DNA of 5,397 nt, taken from the IMG/VR virus record IMGVR_UViG_2671181012_000016. One strand, 5' to 3'. The notes beneath the pieces are model-generated. The model was not told the DNA's origin, did not search any database, and saw only the letters and a program-made list of their open reading frames with translations. The translations under genes and the position numbers were made by a program. This DNA is from a virus (taxonomy: Duplodnaviria > Heunggongvirae > Uroviricota > Caudoviricetes). This document shows positions 1 to 5,397 of the stretch, piece by piece (the first letter of the stretch is position 1; each line of letters opens with the position of its first letter).

Positions 1-717
1 ATGGATGATAACAATATATCGGTCAAACAATATATTATTTATTCGGTTATGAATGATTTAATTACTGGTGGGCGAGAATCTTCAGTTTTAAACGTTCCTG
101 TATCTTTATCCCCGAGAAACTCCACCATAGAGGCTATAAAACGCTTGATTGATGATATAAGAGATTATTTTTATAAATCAAAATATCCAACAAGAGAATT
201 TCTTTTGTGTTATGGTTTAGAATCAAGTGAAATCGAGCAATATCCTATTGAATTAGCTGCAAAAATTGATTCATGTGGTTTTTTAATATTTGATAGTAAA
301 CTATCTTGTCAGGTTGTCGATACTTTAAATTCAGCAGTTGCATTGTACCATGTCGGAATGCGTAATCACGCAGACAAACTTACTAGAGTTGGTGTTGAGT
401 TATTGCTTAATGATTTTTTTGAAGAAATTATATCGAACCATGAAAAAGATAAAAAAATAAAGGATGCTTTATCCTTATCACAGAAAGAAAAAGCGCGCAA
501 ACCAAGAAATCATTATTACAATGAAGTTATGCACGTAATTAAACTAACATGGGAAAAGTACCCTAAAGCCAGTAAAACAGGTTTATTGAACGAGCTTTCT
601 GTTTACTACCATGGGAAAGTAAGTAAAAACACGCTAGATAGATGGATTAAAGAATCAGGGGCACAACCACCAAAGCCTGATAAATACTCTTCGTTTGAGC
701 TTGTTCACCCCCAATAG
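1..717 (+). CDS. hypothetical protein; AT-rich cargo gene with unassigned N-terminal region and C-terminal helix-turn-helix-like segment
   Basis: 238-codon ORF starting at the window edge, so the true start and RBS are not visible. Composition is clearly AT-rich (by-eye estimate ~30% GC against ~50% or more for the rest of the window). C-terminal segment KTGLLNELSVYYHGKVSKNTLDRWIKESG has helix-turn-helix character, preceded by a Lys-rich linker. No family recognised. Confidence 0.55.
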   Translation: MDDNNISVKQYIIYSVMNDLITGGRESSVLNVPVSLSPRNSTIEAIKRLIDDIRDYFYKSKYPTREFLLCYGLESSEIEQYPIELAAKIDSCGFLIFDSKLSCQVVDTLNSAVALYHVGMRNHADKLTRVGVELLLNDFFEEIISNHEKDKKIKDALSLSQKEKARKPRNHYYNEVMHVIKLTWEKYPKASKTGLLNELSVYYHGKVSKNTLDRWIKESGAQPPKPDKYSSFELVHPQ

Positions 718-797
718 CTGGCTACGGTATTTTAATAGCTGGCTATTGAGGCTAAATAACTGGTAACAGCCCCACAGCAACTGGCTATTGGGCTAAA
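713..797 (+). repeat. three phased direct repeats containing CTGGCTA (two longer copies CTGGCTATTG(A)GGCTAAA) in the intergenic region upstream of the excisionase-family gene
   Basis: AATAGCTGGCTA at 713-724 and 734-745; CTGGCTATTGAGGCTAAA at 739-756; CTGGCTATTGGGCTAAA at 781-797. Core copies start at 718, 739 and 781, i.e. spaced 21 and 42 bp (same helical face). Confidence 0.45.
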
Positions 798-822
798 AAC
801 AAAATACTCATTGATTGATATT

Positions 823-856
823 TATCACCGTTGTTACTTAGACGTACACGGTGATA
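823..856 (+). promoter_or_regulatory. inverted repeat TATCACCG / CGGTGATA overlapping the putative ribosome-binding site of the downstream HTH gene
   Basis: TATCACCG at 823-830 and its exact reverse complement CGGTGATA at 849-856, separated by 18 nt. The right arm contains GGTGA (850-854), the likely Shine-Dalgarno for the ATG at 860. Confidence 0.3.
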
Positions 857-859
857 GAT

Positions 860-1069
860 ATGAATTTAAAGAAATCTGATTTATCAACTGACCGCCTTAC
901 ACGTGCTGAAGCTGCTGCCTACCTTGGCGTTAACAATCAAACACTGGCGAACTGGGCGTGTACTGGCAAGGTAAAAATCCCTTTCCATAAGCTTGGTCGC
1001 AAAGTGCTGTATATGCGCACTGATCTCGATGCTTATCTTGCATCCACTCGCAGAACGCAGACGGTGTAA
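860..1069 (+). CDS. excisionase-family helix-turn-helix DNA-binding protein (AlpA/Vis-like regulator or excisionase)
   Basis: 69-aa product with LTRAEAAAYLGVNNQTLANWACTGKVKIPFHKLGRKVLYMRTDLDAYL, matching the pattern of excisionase-type (MerR-like) HTH domains (hydrophobic-EAA-LGVS-TLYRW-GK-P-K-GRK-RF-DL-WL). ATG at 860 is preceded by GGTGA; the ORF track starts at an in-frame GTG at 851. Stop TAA at 1067-1069. Confidence 0.8.
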   Translation: MNLKKSDLSTDRLTRAEAAAYLGVNNQTLANWACTGKVKIPFHKLGRKVLYMRTDLDAYLASTRRTQTV

Positions 1070-1083
1070 GGGGGAGTGATGGC

Positions 1084-1115
1084 ACATAAAACAAAGGCGA
1101 CCGGGGGCGGTCGCC
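1084..1115 (-). terminator. putative rho-independent terminator for the leftward small gene
   Basis: Perfect 8-bp GC-rich stem GGCGACCG (1096-1103) / CGGTCGCC (1108-1115) with a 4-nt loop. On the minus strand it is followed by the T-rich run TTTGTTTTATG (complement of 1084-1095). The + strand has no T-tract after the stem. Confidence 0.5.
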
Positions 1116-1209
1116 AATGGATACACACTAAACTTGAACGCATCACCAACAATGCCACATTTGCGGCTGGTGGGCAATGTGATCAGTGTGCTGGCTTGCT
1201 GGTTGGCTG

Positions 1210-1392
1210 TCAGCCTTTGGGTTCTATGCCTTCTTTGCGTAGCTTATCACGACAAGCATTTTTTACCCATGAGCTGAAATTACCAGGCCCAGCAACTTCG
1301 TTAATTTGTTGCAACAATGTGTCTTCGAAGCGGATGTTTTTCTTTGTGCTGCCGGAGCGATCAAATTTTGGTTTCACATTTTCTTCTTGCAT
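1210..1392 (-). CDS. small ribbon-helix-helix-like DNA-binding protein (putative repressor)
   Basis: 60-aa ORF convergent with the HTH gene. KKNIRFEDTLLQQINEVAGPGNFSSWVKNACRDKL fits a beta-strand/helix/helix (Arc/CopG-type) pattern. Its start codon abuts the palindromic operators and a terminator lies downstream. No clear Shine-Dalgarno, and a long + strand ORF overlaps it, so coding status is uncertain. Confidence 0.5.
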   Translation of the reverse strand: MQEENVKPKFDRSGSTKKNIRFEDTLLQQINEVAGPGNFSSWVKNACRDKLRKEGIEPKG

Positions 1393-1436
1393 TGGTACGT
1401 ACCATCGTTATAAACTGAAATTAAATGGTACGTACC
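1387..1436 (+). promoter_or_regulatory. putative rightward promoter of the replication operon with two palindromic operator sites
   Basis: Perfect 12-bp palindrome TGGTACGTACCA at 1393-1404 and a second copy of the core GGTACGTACC at 1427-1436, centres ~33 bp apart. Candidate -35 TTGCAT (1387-1392) and -10 TATAAA (1409-1414) with a 16-bp spacer that contains the first palindrome; the second palindrome lies just downstream of the predicted transcription start. Confidence 0.5.
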
Positions 1437-1465
1437 GCATTAAAAATACGCAACCATTAAATACA

Positions 1466-1502
1466 GCGAAGCCCGGTAGTGCGGGAACACTAACCGGGCT
1501 TC
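1466..1502 (+). other. long stable stem-loop in the leader of the rightward operon (possible RNA regulatory or processing element)
   Basis: GAAGCCCGGT (1468-1477) pairs perfectly with ACCGGGCTTC (1493-1502); the stem extends with AGTG (1478-1481) / CACT (1488-1491), leaving a 1-nt bulge and a 6-nt loop CGGGAA. No U-tract follows on the + strand. Confidence 0.4.
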
Positions 1503-1537
1503 TAACCACCAACGATAACGATAGTATCGAGGTAGCT

Positions 1538-1741
1538 ATGTTAAATCATACCACACACCCGCAAGGGCGGTACTCGCACGACCTGAATAAATACATCTGG
1601 CGTTTTATCGCCCTGAGCACGGCACAACCGCGCGTGATTACCATTGAGGCCACCAGCGAACAGGAAGCACGCCAGCAATCCCCGGCTGGCTACGTGATGG
1701 TATTCGCCGCCCGTATTCGTCAGGGGGTGTGCCATGCCTGA
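1538..1741 (+). CDS. small hypothetical protein, first gene of the replication operon (possibly Icd-like; tentative)
   Basis: ATG at 1538 preceded by GAGG (1528-1531). 67-aa product MLNHTTHPQGRYSHDLNKYIWRFIALSTAQPRVITIEATSEQEARQQSPAGYVMVFAARIRQGVCHA. The stop overlaps the next start (ATGCCTGA). The Icd-like assignment is from memory of small proteins at this position in P4-like elements and is unverified. Confidence 0.55.
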   Translation: MLNHTTHPQGRYSHDLNKYIWRFIALSTAQPRVITIEATSEQEARQQSPAGYVMVFAARIRQGVCHA

Positions 1742-2054
1742 TATGTCAAATTACCAGTACCTGATTAATCCGCATTTTAACTGTGAGCATGATATTGCTA
1801 AAAAGGTTTATTCCGCTGCTGATGGGGCTACTGACAATATATCAATGGCTGTTGCGTCAATTGGTAGCCTGATGTGGCATGCGTCAGAAAATGAGGACTA
1901 TGACGAAAAGGCCATGCGCATTGATATGGGTAATATCGGTTTGTTACTGGCAATGCTTGGGCAGTTTGATATTTCGTTACGGTGCACCATTGAAAATGCC
2001 ACAGATGCATTAAATGCCATAAAGAAAGCGAATACTGATTCAAATCGGGGATAA
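1734..2054 (+). CDS. hypothetical protein
   Basis: 106-aa ORF; ATG at 1734 preceded by GGGGG (1723-1727) and overlapping the upstream stop by 8 nt (translational coupling). No recognisable motif. Confidence 0.6.
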   Translation: MPDMSNYQYLINPHFNCEHDIAKKVYSAADGATDNISMAVASIGSLMWHASENEDYDEKAMRIDMGNIGLLLAMLGQFDISLRCTIENATDALNAIKKANTDSNRG

Positions 2055-2060
2055 ATAATC

Positions 2061-2360
2061 ATGAGAACATATTTATCTGGCTTGACTGCCAGCGGTTATG
2101 CACACCCCAAAATTATCCCCGGCGCTATTTATCTGGATAAGAACGGTAACAGAGTAACGGTAAAAGAACTGATGTTTGACCGTGTGTATTTTATTCGTGA
2201 TGGCTATTCATTTCATAGTTCGCTGAACGTGGAGATCTTTATTAGCAGATTCCGGCGGGAAATCCCGACTTCCAGAAATAACCATGTGTCACGTGTGGAT
2301 GTGGATAAAAAACTGCAGGAACTGAAAAACATGATTGCCGCGTGGAGAGAGCCGAAATGA
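2061..2360 (+). CDS. hypothetical protein
   Basis: 99-aa ORF starting 6 nt after the preceding stop. Its stop TGA (2358-2360) overlaps the ATG (2357-2359) of the replication gene as ATGA. No recognisable motif. Confidence 0.6.
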   Translation: MRTYLSGLTASGYAHPKIIPGAIYLDKNGNRVTVKELMFDRVYFIRDGYSFHSSLNVEIFISRFRREIPTSRNNHVSRVDVDKKLQELKNMIAAWREPK

Positions 2361-4174
2361 AAAAAGCGCCAAATTTAAAACACCAGCCGCGTGACAAAAT
2401 GACGGAAGTCATCATTTTTGCGGGTAGTGATGCGTGGGCACATGCGAAGCAGTGGCAGGAACAGGACGGGCGACTGGCTGGCGATAACGTGCCACCTGTC
2501 TGGCTTGGAGAGCAACAACTTGCCGAACTGGACAACCTGCAAATCGTACCGGACGGACGCTATCGCGTGCGTCTCTACCAGGCGGGGTTATTGCGTCCGG
2601 GGCTTGTTAATACCATCGGGCAGAAACTGGCAGCGGCAGGTGTCAGGGATGCTGATTATTATCCTGAAGGAATGCACAGCCAGAAACGGGAGAACTGGCG
2701 CGAATATCTGGAACGTGAACGGGCAGAGCAGGCGGAAAAGAAAAAGGTAGTTGAACTGCCTGTAAAGAAAAAAGAGCGGGTAAAAGACGATAACGCTTCA
2801 TCACTGGCGCTTAACCAGATGGGAGCAAGTCAACGCGGCGAAGTTCTCCTGGCACATTATGGCGGTGAACTGGCGATTCATGCTGACTCTGACACTGTTC
2901 ACCATTACAACGGCGTTGTATGGGAGCCAGTACAGGATAAAGAATTACAGCGAGCTATGGCACAGATTTTCATTGATGCGGAGATCAGCTATTCGCAGAA
3001 CGCCATTAAATCGGCGGTCGATACCATGAAGTTAAGTTTGCCTGTAATGGGGAATACAGCCCGTAACCTGATTGGATTCAGTAACGGGGTATTTGATACC
3101 AGAACAGGTAATTTTCGGGAGCATAACAAAAACGACTGGTTGTTAATTGCCAGTGAATTACCTTTCAGCCCACCAGCAGAGGGGGAAACGCTGGCAACAC
3201 ATGCGCCGAATTTCTGGAAGTGGTTACGCCGTTCGGTGGCTGAGAATGACCGCAAGGCGGATCGCGTACTGGCTGCATTATTCATGGTGCTGGCGAACCG
3301 GTACGACTGGCAGTTATTCATTGAGGTAACAGGTCCAGGGGGAAGTGGTAAAAGCGTGATGGCGGAGATTTGCACCATGCTGGCGGGTAAGGCCAACACA
3401 GTATCGGCAAGCATGAAGGCGCTGGAAGATGCAAGGGAACGCGCGTTAGTGGTTGGCTTTTCGCTGATTATCATGCCGGATATGACCCGCTACGCTGGTG
3501 ATGGGGCAGGGATTAAGGCTATTACAGGCGGTGACAAGGTGGCAATTGACCCGAAACACAAAGCCCCCTACTCAACGCGTATTCCGGCAGTAGTGCTGGC
3601 GGTTAACAATAACGCCATGTCATTCAGTGACCGCAGCGGGGGGATCTCGCGCCGTCGGGTGATATTCAATTTTTCGGAAGTTGTACCGGAGAACGAACGC
3701 GATTCCATGCTGGCAGAAAAAATAGAAGGAGAGCTGGCGGTTGTGATTCGCCACCTGCTTACTCGTTTTTCTGACCAGGACGAAGCTAAACGCCTGCTGT
3801 ATGAGCAGCAGAAATCAGAAGAAGCTCTGGTGATAAAACGCGAGGGCGATTCGCTGGTGGACTTCTGCGGCTATCTCATGTCGTCGGTAATGTGTGATGG
3901 CCTGTTAGTGGGTAATGCTGAAATTGTGCCATTCAGCCCGCGCAGGTATCTCTATCATGCCTATCTGGCTTATATGAAGGCACATGGGTTTGGTAAACCT
4001 GTAACACTGACGCGCTTCGGTAAAGATATGCCGGGGGCAATGGCGGAATATGGCAGGGAGTATATGAAACGGAAAACGAAGCACGGTTTGCGTTCAAACG
4101 TGAAACTGACGGAGGAATCAGAAGACTGGATGCCGTCATGTGTATCGGTCACTAATGACGATAGCAAAAATTAA
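2357..4174 (+). CDS. P4 alpha-like replication initiation protein (phage/plasmid primase-helicase family, SF3 helicase-type P-loop NTPase)
   Basis: 605-aa product from ATG 2357 with RBS GGAGAG (2344-2349); the ORF track starts at an in-frame GTG at 2342. Walker A motif GPGGSGKS encoded at 3332-3355, followed by a hydrophobic stretch ending in D (LIIMPD), a Walker B candidate. A charged Lys/Glu-rich linker (~2690-2790) separates an N-terminal ~110-aa region from the NTPase region. The iteron array immediately downstream matches the arrangement of P4 alpha and crr. Confidence 0.8.
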   Translation: MKKAPNLKHQPRDKMTEVIIFAGSDAWAHAKQWQEQDGRLAGDNVPPVWLGEQQLAELDNLQIVPDGRYRVRLYQAGLLRPGLVNTIGQKLAAAGVRDADYYPEGMHSQKRENWREYLERERAEQAEKKKVVELPVKKKERVKDDNASSLALNQMGASQRGEVLLAHYGGELAIHADSDTVHHYNGVVWEPVQDKELQRAMAQIFIDAEISYSQNAIKSAVDTMKLSLPVMGNTARNLIGFSNGVFDTRTGNFREHNKNDWLLIASELPFSPPAEGETLATHAPNFWKWLRRSVAENDRKADRVLAALFMVLANRYDWQLFIEVTGPGGSGKSVMAEICTMLAGKANTVSASMKALEDARERALVVGFSLIIMPDMTRYAGDGAGIKAITGGDKVAIDPKHKAPYSTRIPAVVLAVNNNAMSFSDRSGGISRRRVIFNFSEVVPENERDSMLAEKIEGELAVVIRHLLTRFSDQDEAKRLLYEQQKSEEALVIKREGDSLVDFCGYLMSSVMCDGLLVGNAEIVPFSPRRYLYHAYLAYMKAHGFGKPVTLTRFGKDMPGAMAEYGREYMKRKTKHGLRSNVKLTEESEDWMPSCVSVTNDDSKN

Positions 4175-4184
4175 ACTTATGGAA

Positions 4185-4417
4185 TAACTGTTCACCACTG
4201 TTCACTCTGTCATAAATATCTTTTATATCAGTATATTATAGGGTGAACAGTTATTTATGAACTGTTCACCAAACTATTCACTGTTCACCTTTTTGATTGT
4301 TTATTGAGCTTCAAGGGTGAACAGTGGTGAATAGTTGGTGAATAGTTTTTGTGAAACTGTTCACCCCTTAACATTATGAATTAAAAGATAAAATATCAAA
4401 AGGTGAACAGGTGAAGG
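4185..4417. repeat. replication-origin iteron array (P4 crr/ori-like), TGTTCACC octamers in both orientations with AT-rich spacers
   Basis: Perfect TGTTCACC at 4189-4196, 4263-4270, 4282-4289 and 4358-4365. Perfect inverted GGTGAACA at 4252-4259, 4316-4323 and 4402-4409. Variants TGTTCACT 4199-4206, TATTCAC 4275-4281, GGTGAATA 4326-4333 and 4337-4344, GTGAAGG 4411-4417. AT-rich stretches at 4211-4240 and 4371-4400. Two tandem ~65-75 bp units (4186-4260, 4261-4324) share the layout ACTGTTCACC ... CTGTTCAC ... AT-rich ... GGGTGAACAG. Confidence 0.85.
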
Positions 4418-4461
4418 GTTAAAACGCAAAAATTTTAATTTACTGCTGTGAGATAAAGCCT

Positions 4462-4707
4462 ATGACAGCGAAGCACACAAAAAAATCACAATCGCACGCC
4501 CTTGATTTGACGGAACACTGGTTAAGGGTGTCGATAAAAATCATCGACCGCAACGCCGGGGAAGGATATGCGAAAGCACATCCCGAACTGATTAGCGCAT
4601 TCATGACAACGGCAGCTGCAAACTTTGCCACGCTGACAGAGCGGGAGATTGCCGAAGCGGAACAGGTAACAACCATCAACGTTAAAACCGGAGAGGTGAA
4701 ATCATGA
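4462..4707 (+). CDS. hypothetical protein
   Basis: 81-aa ORF with a weak RBS. Its stop TGA (4705-4707) overlaps the ATG (4704-4706) of the SSB gene as ATGA, which supports it being a real coupled gene. Confidence 0.5.
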   Translation: MTAKHTKKSQSHALDLTEHWLRVSIKIIDRNAGEGYAKAHPELISAFMTTAAANFATLTEREIAEAEQVTTINVKTGEVKS

Positions 4708-5114
4708 CAGCACAGATAGCCGCTTACGGGCGGCTGGTGGACGACCCGCAGGTAAAACAGACCAGCAAGGGCACACCGATGACGCTGGCGCGTATGGCGG
4801 TATCACTGCCATGCAGTCAGGCACAGGACGGACAGGCGACGTTATGGTTATCGGTCATCGCATTTGGCAAACAGGCCGACCAACTGGCAGGACATGAGAA
4901 AGGCAACGTAATCAGCGTATCCGGCGTGATGCAGATAAGCCAGTGGACCGGACAGAACGGGGAGACGCGTCAGGGTTATCAGGTCATTGCCGACAGCGTA
5001 ATCAGTGCGAAAACGGTGCGACCAGGCGGGAACAGACGCAAAACCACAGGCACACAGGGTAATCAGCCACCAGCGGGAGGCGATGACCCTTACGGTGATG
5101 ATATTCCGTTCTGA
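4704..5114 (+). CDS. ssb: single-stranded DNA-binding protein (SSB)
   Basis: 136-aa product with strong RBS GGAGAGG (4689-4695). The N-terminal ~110 aa have SSB/OB-fold character (IAAYGRLVDDPQVKQTSKGTPMTLARMAVSL ... WLSVIAFGKQADQLAGHEKGNVISVSGVMQISQWTGQNGETRQGYQVIADSVI). A Gly/Pro/Gln-rich linker leads to the acidic C-terminal tail DDPYGDDIPF, matching the DDDIPF tail of E. coli SSB. Confidence 0.9.
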   Translation: MTAQIAAYGRLVDDPQVKQTSKGTPMTLARMAVSLPCSQAQDGQATLWLSVIAFGKQADQLAGHEKGNVISVSGVMQISQWTGQNGETRQGYQVIADSVISAKTVRPGGNRRKTTGTQGNQPPAGGDDPYGDDIPF

Positions 5115-5124
5115 GGGGGTGACG

Positions 5125-5397
5125 ATGGTACATGACCGCATAGCGGAAGAACTCGAAGCGAAAGGATTTTACCGGAGGGCGGCGGCGCGATGGGGTGAAG
5201 TCATGATGCTGGTGGAGACAGACAAGGAACGGCATCACATCACGATGCGACGGCTGGAATGTTCCAGGAAGGCACAGAGGCCACCGGAGCCGCCTGATAA
5301 TTTCGGAGACCTGAGAAATGCAGTTAATCGCACTTGTGCCGAAATGGGTATAGATGGTGCTGGTGATGAAATATGGCGCAATTACCAGGACAGCTAA
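5125..5397 (+). CDS. PerC-family transcriptional regulator-like protein
   Basis: 90-aa product from ATG 5125 with RBS GAGGGGG (5113-5119) just after the SSB stop. N-terminal IAEELEAKGFYRRAAARWGEVM resembles, from memory, the N-terminal WRRAA-containing motif of PerC/Pch regulators. Stop TAA at 5395-5397. The in-frame upstream extension to 5005 overlaps ssb and is not used. Confidence 0.6.
   Translation: MVHDRIAEELEAKGFYRRAAARWGEVMMLVETDKERHHITMRRLECSRKAQRPPEPPDNFGDLRNAVNRTCAEMGIDGAGDEIWRNYQDS

Follow-up and report, generated by a model that had tools for sequence, protein, structure and literature searches.

A putative ribbon-helix-helix repressor with twin palindromic operators and a SymR-like antisense RNA as a likely silencer of replication genes in a chromosomal satellite of Escherichia coli

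The stretch of viral DNA considered here (IMG/VR record IMGVR_UViG_2671181012_000016; 5397 bp in all, hereafter the window) carries a compact control region between a gene for an excisionase-type regulator and an operon of replication genes. A small leftward gene, encoding a protein of 60 amino acids (aa), starts flush against the first of two palindromes, O1 and O2; a predicted rightward promoter, P_R, is threaded through these palindromes and faces an operon that is headed by an Icd-like gene and ends with a primase of the D5_N/P4 family; and a short structured RNA is predicted to run leftward across the ribosome site of that first gene (Table 1). The genes were placed from left to right by the listing of open reading frames (ORFs) together with profile matches in Pfam and NCBIfam. 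We consider it likely, though well short of certain, that the small protein is a ribbon-helix-helix (RHH) repressor which, acting at its twin operators on P_R and seconded by the antisense RNA, silences the replication genes of a chromosomal satellite. From the conservation of these features across related loci, from the way in which protein and operator vary together and from the strand and structure of the RNA, we infer binding by the protein, repression of P_R and an inducing signal that would lift it.

Table 1. Annotated and predicted features of the 5397-bp window (+, rightward; -, leftward)
Feature	Coordinates	Strand	Remarks
238-aa protein, function unassigned	1-717		
Excisionase/HTH_17-type regulator	860-1069	+	
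Predicted intrinsic terminator of the putative repressor gene	1115..1096	-	GGCGACCGCCCCCGGTCGCC then TTTGTTTTAT; GC-rich hairpin and T-run, from the terminator scan
60-aa YlcI/YnfO gene (putative repressor)	1210-1392	-	
Predicted -35 of P_R, TTGCAT	1387-1392	+	Overlaps the Met-Gln codons of the putative repressor gene
Predicted operator O1, TGGTACGTACCA	1393-1404		Perfect 12-bp palindrome; adjoins the ATG of the putative repressor gene; fills the P_R spacer
Predicted -10 of P_R, TATAAA	1409-1414	+	Between the palindromes; predicted start near 1421
Predicted operator O2, TGGTACGTACCG	1426-1437		About +5 to +16 of the rightward transcript; last base differs (G at 1437)
Predicted SymR-like cis-antisense RNA	~1538..1455	-	~80 nt; covers the ribosome site and start codon of the Icd-like gene
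Predicted antisense-RNA promoter, extended -10 TGgTATGAT	1553..1545 (TATGAT 1550..1545)	-	Within codons 3-5 of the Icd-like gene
Icd-like gene	1538-1741	+	NCBIfam NF033153, 1.1e-18; RefSeq; Shine-Dalgarno GAGG at 1529-1532; heads the rightward operon
Remaining operon: 106-aa protein, DUF4222 protein, D5_N/P4-family primase (2357-4174)	1734-4174	+	Frames overlap or almost touch
Ten GGTGAACAG repeats	4188-4410		
81-aa protein, SSB, PerC-family protein	Right end of window, after the repeat field		

The two palindromes share TGGTACGTACC at 1393-1403 and 1426-1436, which by direct reading and repeat search places them 33 bp apart from start to start, and the motif GGTANNTACC occurs twice here and nowhere else in the window (shuffled sequence yields 0.07 on average, and none of 200 shuffles reaches two). 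A preceding sequence-only reading had put them at coordinates that prove right to within 1 nt and had described them as lying in the spacer and early transcribed region of the promoter, around a candidate -10; this geometry is kept across loci. With all loci turned into the orientation of the window, about 60 retain two GTA-NN-TAC sites 33-35 bp apart, the first of which touches the start codon of the small gene or extends into it, and the loci that lack paired sites are contig ends, rearrangements or cases in which the stretch between the sites has been deleted. In these ~60 loci, each of ~5 kb, GGTANNTACC is confined to this one place, and the twin-site layout persists from E. coli to Xenorhabdus, Pantoea, Proteus and Pectobacterium as the flanking intergenic sequence drifts. 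The promoter hexamers travel with the sites. At a fixed distance past O1 the -10 reads TATAAT in L004 and L009-L014, TATGCT or TATGAT in a Pectobacterium clade whose small gene is annotated as HicB, and TAGTTT in a clade with a SymE gene downstream. Genes that start with Met-Gln use ATGCAA in 48 out of 48 cases, never CAG, and thereby yield TTGCAT on the opposite strand; those that start with Met-Ser-Thr use ATGTCAAC in 20 out of 20, yielding a perfect TTGACA. A promoter scan of locus L053 returns TTGACA-18-TATGCT as the sole promoter in 600 bp, directed away from the small gene. The candidate binding sites thus overlap the predicted core promoter elements of the very unit that they would regulate.

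O1 and O2 also form a perfect inverted repeat with one another (12 nt, 19 nt apart), which opens the way to an account in RNA rather than in protein: a leftward transcript from upstream of O2 would fold the pair into a stem of 10-12 bp with a loop of ~20 nt, ending at the AUG of the small gene and controlling its translation or stability, while the protein does something else. Complementarity is kept in most clades with asymmetric centres, where the two sites are inverted (GT/AC in L004, L009 and L010; GG/CC in ~26 loci), and the terminator of the antisense RNA lacks a U-tract in L043 and L047, so that read-through RNAs containing both sites are plausible. The outer half-sites of each palindrome (TGGTA/TACCA), however, are two-fold symmetric, as a protein dimer needs and a stem does not; the asymmetric sites of L011-L014 stand in direct orientation, which puts two mismatches at the centre, and a single mismatch is present in L015, L017 and L020; the sites hold a fixed register with the rightward -35 and -10; and strain SCU-387, to which we return, has three copies around its promoter and not one pair. 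A stem of this kind is, we think, an unlikely reason for the palindromes to exist, and it is compatible with their serving as operators, since neither reading excludes the other.

A repressor at these operators presupposes the leftward gene, which had been proposed from the letters and which holds up on several counts. Its start codon is the complement of 1390-1392; the product passes both curated family cut-offs (Pfam PF13132, DUF3950, 33.0 bits for a cut-off of 25, E 5.6e-8; NCBIfam NF041551, YlcI/YnfO, 31.1 bits for a cut-off of 30, E 1.8e-7) and belongs to the YlcI/YnfO (DUF3950) family; RefSeq records it as WP_001154805.1, with identical coordinates and family name, in an E. coli genome of 100% identity; and its homologues fill 581 clusters in which hydrophobic periodicity is conserved, a search of one genome per species giving 72 loci in the Enterobacterales. 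The leftward gene also ends where it was said to end, at a terminator-like hairpin with its T-run on the minus strand, 95 nt past the stop codon; in L051 the letters of the homologous stem differ and still pair. The frame that competes with it is a + strand ORF at 1076-1741 (221 aa, with the Icd-like protein as its C-terminal part), whose translation, if it were the real product, would displace the leftward gene altogether. That frame is free of stops across the intergenic region in 12 of the 13 loci of the window's clade (L003-L014 and L051), where the other two + frames have 3-10 stops, an oddity of this clade; intergenic lengths (139-157) differ by multiples of three, and direct reading finds the Shine-Dalgarno-like AAGGGGGAG before an ATG at 1079. 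Yet the curated families, the 581 clusters and the hydrophobic periodicity all attach to the minus-strand product, the upstream end and sequence of the longer frame are not conserved, and over all clades it is interrupted by in-frame stops in 43 of 62 loci. Its shared 'KTKA..GRQ' start is the conserved minus-strand terminator read from the other side, and antisense frames often stay open as an artefact when third positions coincide. Substitutions by codon position (189/126/440 versus 126/189/440) do not decide between the minus-strand gene and the + ORF, which have their third positions in common. Use of both strands is conceivable in principle, and replacement of the leftward gene by the longer frame seems to us barely credible.

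The fold of the small protein is approached through its relatives. A sister clade, which RefSeq names 'HicB family antitoxin' and whose annotations also read 'CopG family' and even 'repressor', shares 38% identity and can be aligned from end to end, including a C-terminal GIEPKG; its members match Pfam HicB at 1.7e-5, above cut-off, and RHH_1 at 1.7e-3, with weak matches to Arc, NikA and TacA1. An hhalign comparison lays residues 13-40 of the family profile on residues 5-32 of P22 Arc, a marginal match (E 0.0048, probability 7%) whose register puts Lys17, Asn19 and Arg21 on Arc Gln9, Asn11 and Arg13, the base-reading residues of Arc; the same comparison with Mnt gives no match, and a profile search of PDB sequences returns no RHH chain. 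The AlphaFold2 (AF2) model of the monomer has an extended N-terminus followed by helices at 24-34 and 39-53 (mean predicted local distance difference test score, pLDDT, 73.8), and structure searches with it come back empty, as expected for half of an intertwined dimer, which leaves the fold unproven. Taken together, these alignments and this model suggest that the protein is probably of the Arc/MetJ type. As to its expression, TTGCGT-17-TACCAT, overlapping O2, is one candidate promoter for the gene and read-through from the antisense promoter is another; a leaderless start is unlikely, no -10 being found at the proper distance. Members of the family occur elsewhere as well: a tblastn search of phages finds DUF3950-like frames in lambda-derived and other lambdoid phage records, and in the one case inspected (vB_EcoS-705R7, L075 4516-4716) the gene lies between lysis and HNH/terminase genes. 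That context differs from the satellite cassette and says nothing on repression.

A tie between protein and palindromes comes from the way they vary together. The strand triplet, that is, the three residues before an invariant Ile-Arg, was compared with the operator centre locus by locus. KKN goes with a CG centre in all seven of its loci (one O1 has TG) and MKH with AC in all seven of its own; MKN or TKN goes with CC at O1 in 30 of 30 (O2 is AC in three); and TFQ goes with CG and swapped outer bases, the AGGTACGTACCT type, in 19 of 19. Arg21 and the GTA/TAC half-sites are constant throughout, and in the Arc register the varying strand residues fall on Gln9 and Asn11, the position of Arg13 being that of the invariant Arg21. 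RHH proteins act as dimers that insert a two-stranded sheet into the major groove of a symmetric site, and the symmetric 12-bp sites, with their co-variation with strand residues, would fit such a mode of binding indirectly. The case that protein type and operator type change together is good but not conclusive, for the independent events are few and follow phylogeny.

The strongest single case is an E. coli island in strain SCU-387, with the same layout as the window: integrase, AlpA, a small minus-strand gene, then Icd-like, DUF4222 and primase genes. Its leader retains 74 nt that match window positions 1467-1540 at ~92% identity. Its 59-aa protein is a better member of the YlcI/YnfO family (59.7 bits) but does not match the protein of the window in BLASTP, and in this slot (L077 3373-3571) the intergenic region has three GTGTT(C/T)AACAC palindromes around TTGACG-17-TAAATT. 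With a diverged allele and different palindromes before the same target, repressor and operators appear therefore to have been swapped as a unit, and such exchange against a constant target would be the hallmark of an immunity-type cassette. RefSeq also marks an 'Icd-like pseudogene, missing C-terminus' (2750-3197) just upstream in SCU-387, overlapping the end of the small gene, which may be an annotation echo of long antisense ORFs. Exchange of this kind bears on whether the palindromes might belong to another factor, be it the helix-turn-helix (HTH)/excisionase-type protein encoded at 860-1069 or a host protein, or might be restriction or methylation targets (GGTACC, TACGTA, GTAC), with the small gene no more than a neighbour. 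AlpA-type proteins do activate downstream genes of phage-inducible chromosomal islands (PICIs) (PMC6092414), and common restriction palindromes can be read directly within the sites. The sites, however, accompany the small gene in loci without an AlpA-type gene nearby, L016 among them; their type follows the strand residues of the small protein and changes fully with the diverged allele; and restriction targets would not be expected as exactly two copies at fixed promoter positions. An unrelated binding factor is accordingly a very unlikely owner of the sites.

Beyond O2, a second layer of control is predicted at the start of the Icd-like gene. On the minus strand, positions 1537..1465 match Rfam symR (RF01809) with 34.7 bits, for a gathering score of 61, and P22 sar with 18 bits, both below threshold; the relatives L043 and L045 score 36.9-37.4 bits for symR with the same gathering score. 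From the 5' end, the predicted RNA has a hairpin with an anti-Shine-Dalgarno sequence in its loop, then a GGUUAG linker and then the terminator hairpin at 1502..1468, after which comes a U-rich tail, the U-tract after the long hairpin being present in many aligned loci and absent in some (L043, L047). In an alignment of 36 non-redundant loci, taken in minus-strand orientation, 12 of 16 consensus pairs show compensatory changes, 95.1% of cells are paired (30-52% when the partners are slid by 1-3 columns), and not one of 500 shuffles reaches the observed co-variation score. The RNA is assigned to the minus strand because wobble pairs favour it so heavily (97 G.U pairs versus 5 on the plus strand; 95.1% versus 79.2% of cells paired). 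The window RNA folds with a minimum free energy of -38.9 kcal/mol (z -6.7). Upstream of it, the T, A and T of TAnnnT are the only positions invariant in all 36 loci, and in SymE-type relatives this hexamer corresponds to the complement of CATTCTA; the symR promoter of E. coli K-12 is lost when CATTCT is silently mutated to CACTCC (PMC1891008). With its opposite-strand origin, its -10 in the first codons of the target and its two hairpins, the RNA is by these features a diverged relative of SymR, one that misses the gathering score and whose target in the window is not SymE. The sequence-only reading had set a protein repressor against RNA-based immunity as a distinct solution; that contrast falls away, a structured antisense RNA being encoded right beside the operators.

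In ~30 sibling loci (among L016 and L018-L049) the first gene downstream is indeed a SymE toxin (Pfam 3.5e-14 for the L016 product, 2088-2378 on the minus strand), and over all loci the first genes behind the unit of leader and antisense RNA are Icd-like, SymE-like, a 154-aa protein or peptides of 32-38 aa. The L016 cassette adjoins a HigB/HigA-like pair and tRNA-Sec and lies outside any satellite; found beside a toxin-antitoxin pair, the cassette is therefore portable. The small protein might be the antitoxin-like partner in an addiction module whose other member is the gene that comes first downstream, Icd-like here and SymE-like in relatives; it would autoregulate that module alone and leave replication to AlpA. 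The 'HicB family antitoxin' label of the sister clade, the SymE genes themselves and the L016 cassette next to another toxin-antitoxin pair away from any satellite all lean that way, as do the observation by Kawano et al. that SymE genes lie adjacent to RHH transcription factors (PMC1891008) and the fact that AlpA overexpression by itself induces the PICIs studied. An addiction module of this sort shares the core claim, namely that the protein binds the palindromes and represses P_R, and differs in how far control reaches. Here the layout of the genes speaks for the longer reach: the Icd-like gene overlaps the next gene in the islands of the window, of E. coli A41 and 90-9280 and of SCU-387, and a scan of the + strand over 1400-4500 finds no promoter-like or terminator-like site, hence none up to where the primase gene ends. 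To control the first gene is thus to control the operon, which would extend from the Icd-like gene through those for the 106-aa and DUF4222 proteins to the primase. We accordingly hold it improbable that regulation stops at the first gene.

In the proposed switch, dimers of the 60-aa protein would bind each 12-bp palindrome, of the form (T/A)GGTA-NN-TACC(A/T), and their occupancy of O1 and O2 would exclude RNA polymerase from P_R and silence all four genes of the operon. With the -35 of P_R lying across the start codon of the repressor gene, the two transcription units would be mutually exclusive. A constitutive-looking promoter in the first Icd-like codons would meanwhile yield the leftward RNA of ~80 nt, which would pair with the Icd-like ribosome site and start codon and block or destabilise such transcripts as escape repression. 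The repressor gene had been called convergent; it is so with respect to the upstream HTH gene and is divergent from the replication operon. The hairpin between the convergent pair has a T-run on the minus strand only, so that transcription from an upstream promoter could conceivably run antisense through the repressor gene into the operon and override the switch; a weaker terminator-like site on the + strand (1198-1215, by the scan) leaves such read-through unassured.

Each part of this arrangement has precedent, the combination of an RHH repressor, palindromic operators and a cis-antisense RNA being a well-known kind (P22 immI, SymE/SymR). In P22 immI, the Mnt and Arc RHH repressors, the sar antisense RNA and the ant gene are so disposed that transcription of a small repressor gene leads away from the operon under its control, an operator overlapping the rightward promoter makes the divergent promoters mutually exclusive and the ribosome site of a downstream gene is covered by a short cis-antisense RNA. 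The window, as predicted, resembles it in all these respects, and further in the alignment of its protein with Arc in the DNA-reading register and in the weak Rfam match to sar on the same strand as symR. It differs in having one repressor gene instead of two, in its two separated 12-bp palindromes in place of a single Arc/Mnt operator and in what would be controlled, which is an Icd-like gene with a replication module and not an antirepressor; the similarity to Arc, moreover, is marginal. To SymE-SymR of E. coli the likeness lies in the two-hairpin RNA, the -10 in the first codons of the target and the covered ribosome site, and sibling loci truly have both the SymE target and the CATTCT -10 motif proven for symR. 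Against this stand Rfam scores of 35-37 bits versus the gathering 61, a target in the window that is an Icd-like gene heading a replication operon, and what appears to be an RHH protein with operators of its own in the place of LexA.

Other switches offer looser parallels. Like the genes for Stl and Rpr in Staphylococcus aureus pathogenicity islands (SaPIs) and Gram-positive PICIs, the putative repressor gene diverges from the excision-replication operon of its satellite. Stl proteins are much larger HTH proteins without sequence relation to the 60-aa protein, so that the likeness is confined to the divergent arrangement of the genes; Stl is known to be derepressed by a protein of the helper phage, and loss of a repressor of the Stl/Rpr type gives uncontrolled replication of the satellite. 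The immI region of P1 (c4 RNA-icd-ant) and the CI system of P4 also have a leader before an Icd-like first frame under small-RNA regulation. The c4 and CI RNAs arise by processing of the sense transcript, with upstream leader sites as their targets, whereas the RNA here comes from the opposite strand, and Rfam C4 and IsrK find no match in the window (E up to 1) or in 1380-1560 (E up to 10); we know of no protein repressor of this kind in P4. Should the repressor be made by read-through, P_R (start near 1421) and the antisense promoter (near 1538) would stand face-to-face ~117 bp apart, an arrangement in use in coliphage 186, although the resemblance to the 186/P2 switch is purely geometric and the repressor families are unrelated. 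Stl and Rpr, for their part, are master repressors that hold a satellite quiescent (PMC6092414).

The nature of the element bears on what such a switch would control. Over bases 1-4483 the window matches the chromosomes of E. coli O114:H49 90-9280 and two other strains at 99.3% identity (100% over 700-2400, in the same three), and RefSeq annotates in 90-9280 the same genes as in the window, preceded by a tyrosine integrase; the island ends early there, right after the primase. The best long relative, in E. coli A41, is 96.5% identical across 93% of the window and continues with genes for major capsid protein, prohead protease, portal, connector, HNH, TerS and TerL, the island being bordered by nfeF and tRNA-Ile. 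Capsid-forming PICIs are recognised by an integrase, an AlpA-type regulator, a primase and a capsid, portal and terminase of their own, without tail or lysis genes (bioRxiv 10.1101/2025.02.11.637232). The window covers the portion with HTH, primase, SSB and PerC genes and then stops, the full set being seen in A41; by gene content and relatives it is probably the left portion of such a capsid-forming satellite, resident in the chromosome. The satellite is not P4-like, because the element nearest to it is a PICI of the capsid-forming type that encodes capsid, portal and terminase itself, and no sid, psu or delta gene is present. The P4 framing given to the element before is thus set aside, and of the repressor-operator module then drawn over the replication promoter what finds support is the module itself, in its geometry, conservation and co-variation, without that framing or the opposition of protein to RNA.

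Among 5426 complete E. coli genomes, 72 have the allele of the window at near full length and 468 have the conserved leader. A megablast search of a phage collection with the window has a sole match, at 78% in the primase gene, to vB_KppS-Ant, a packaged capsid-forming PICI without the module; in the corresponding slot (L076 6994-7583) there is no small minus-strand gene of the YlcI/YnfO family and there are no GGTANNTACC sites. The regulatory slot between integrase and replication genes is therefore filled differently among satellites, and the existence of capsid-forming PICIs without any such module is one of several points that weigh against a silencing switch. The window protein itself gives no direct match to any RHH model, its probable RHH character being read from the sister-clade matches, the Arc register and the AF2 helices. 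The P_R hexamers of the window (TTGCAT-16-TATAAA) are weak, below the rule of the promoter scan; the repressor gene has neither a recognisable promoter of its own nor a strong ribosome site; and the co-variation comes from perhaps four or five independent clades. The AlpA model of Gram-negative PICIs, finally, needed no repressor: published induction there is through the activator AlpA, whose expression is triggered by the helper (PMC6092414), and AlpA overexpression also drives a capsid-forming PICI (bioRxiv 10.1101/2025.02.11.637232).

What that model leaves is a question of maintenance, a global repressor in Gram-negative PICIs having been termed 'unclear' (PMC6092414). A tentative wider proposal, which we put on the doubtful side of even, is that protein, twin operators and antisense RNA together form the missing maintenance switch of many Gram-negative and capsid-forming PICIs, with specificity cassettes exchanged like immunity types and with AlpA overriding the switch, for instance via transcription through the repressor gene. 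Were it true, DUF3950 would gain its first function, and a silencer of the replication operon would supply the missing half of the switch. There would be testable operators with a specificity code, three strand residues versus the operator centre, and the unrelated-looking small genes in the same slot of many islands would be accounted for. The control of satellites would likewise be linked to the SymE/SymR toxin cassette, one regulatory cassette being reused before toxins and replication operons. Later satellite surveys list YlcI/YnfO and 'HicB' genes only as accessory cargo (PMC13612085), and in the open literature that could be searched no description was found of a function for YlcI, YnfO or DUF3950 or of a PICI repressor; that such parts might silence Gram-negative satellites, with specificity cassettes that can be swapped, seems not to have been proposed before.

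Several further observations concern the neighbourhood of the control region. In 90-9280 (L001 9888-25050) two satellites lie in tandem, first the island of the window, shortened after the primase, and then an island with its own integrase, a small repressor annotated as HicB with GTACGTACGTAA / TTACGTACGTAC sites, an Icd-like gene, a RepA-type helicase and a protease-capsid fusion. Between the genes for the 238-aa and HTH proteins, positions 701-792 contain repeated AGCTGGCTA / CTGGCTATTG units (708-724, 739-748 and 771-790) and inverted repeats, which may be sites for an integrase, an excisionase or an AlpA-type protein, and an 18-nt inverted repeat, ATTGATATTTATCACCGT / ACGGTGATAGATATGAAT (814-865; 89% complementary), brackets the start of the HTH/excisionase-type gene. 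The Rfam int-alpA RNA motif has no match in the window and is present in L011 (3332-3398). Just past the primase gene, GGTGAACAG or its complement recurs ten times, in both orientations and with a single mismatch in three of the copies; the whole window has 13 matches where 1.05 are expected, and the field looks like an iteron-type replication origin. At the far right, the SSB gene (4704-5114) is followed by the PerC-family gene (5125-5397; Pfam 5.4e-42). PerC-like genes of PICIs have been reported to silence LEE (locus of enterocyte effacement) expression or to leave it unaffected (PMC11773190), and in A41 the PerC slot is taken by a different hypothetical gene.

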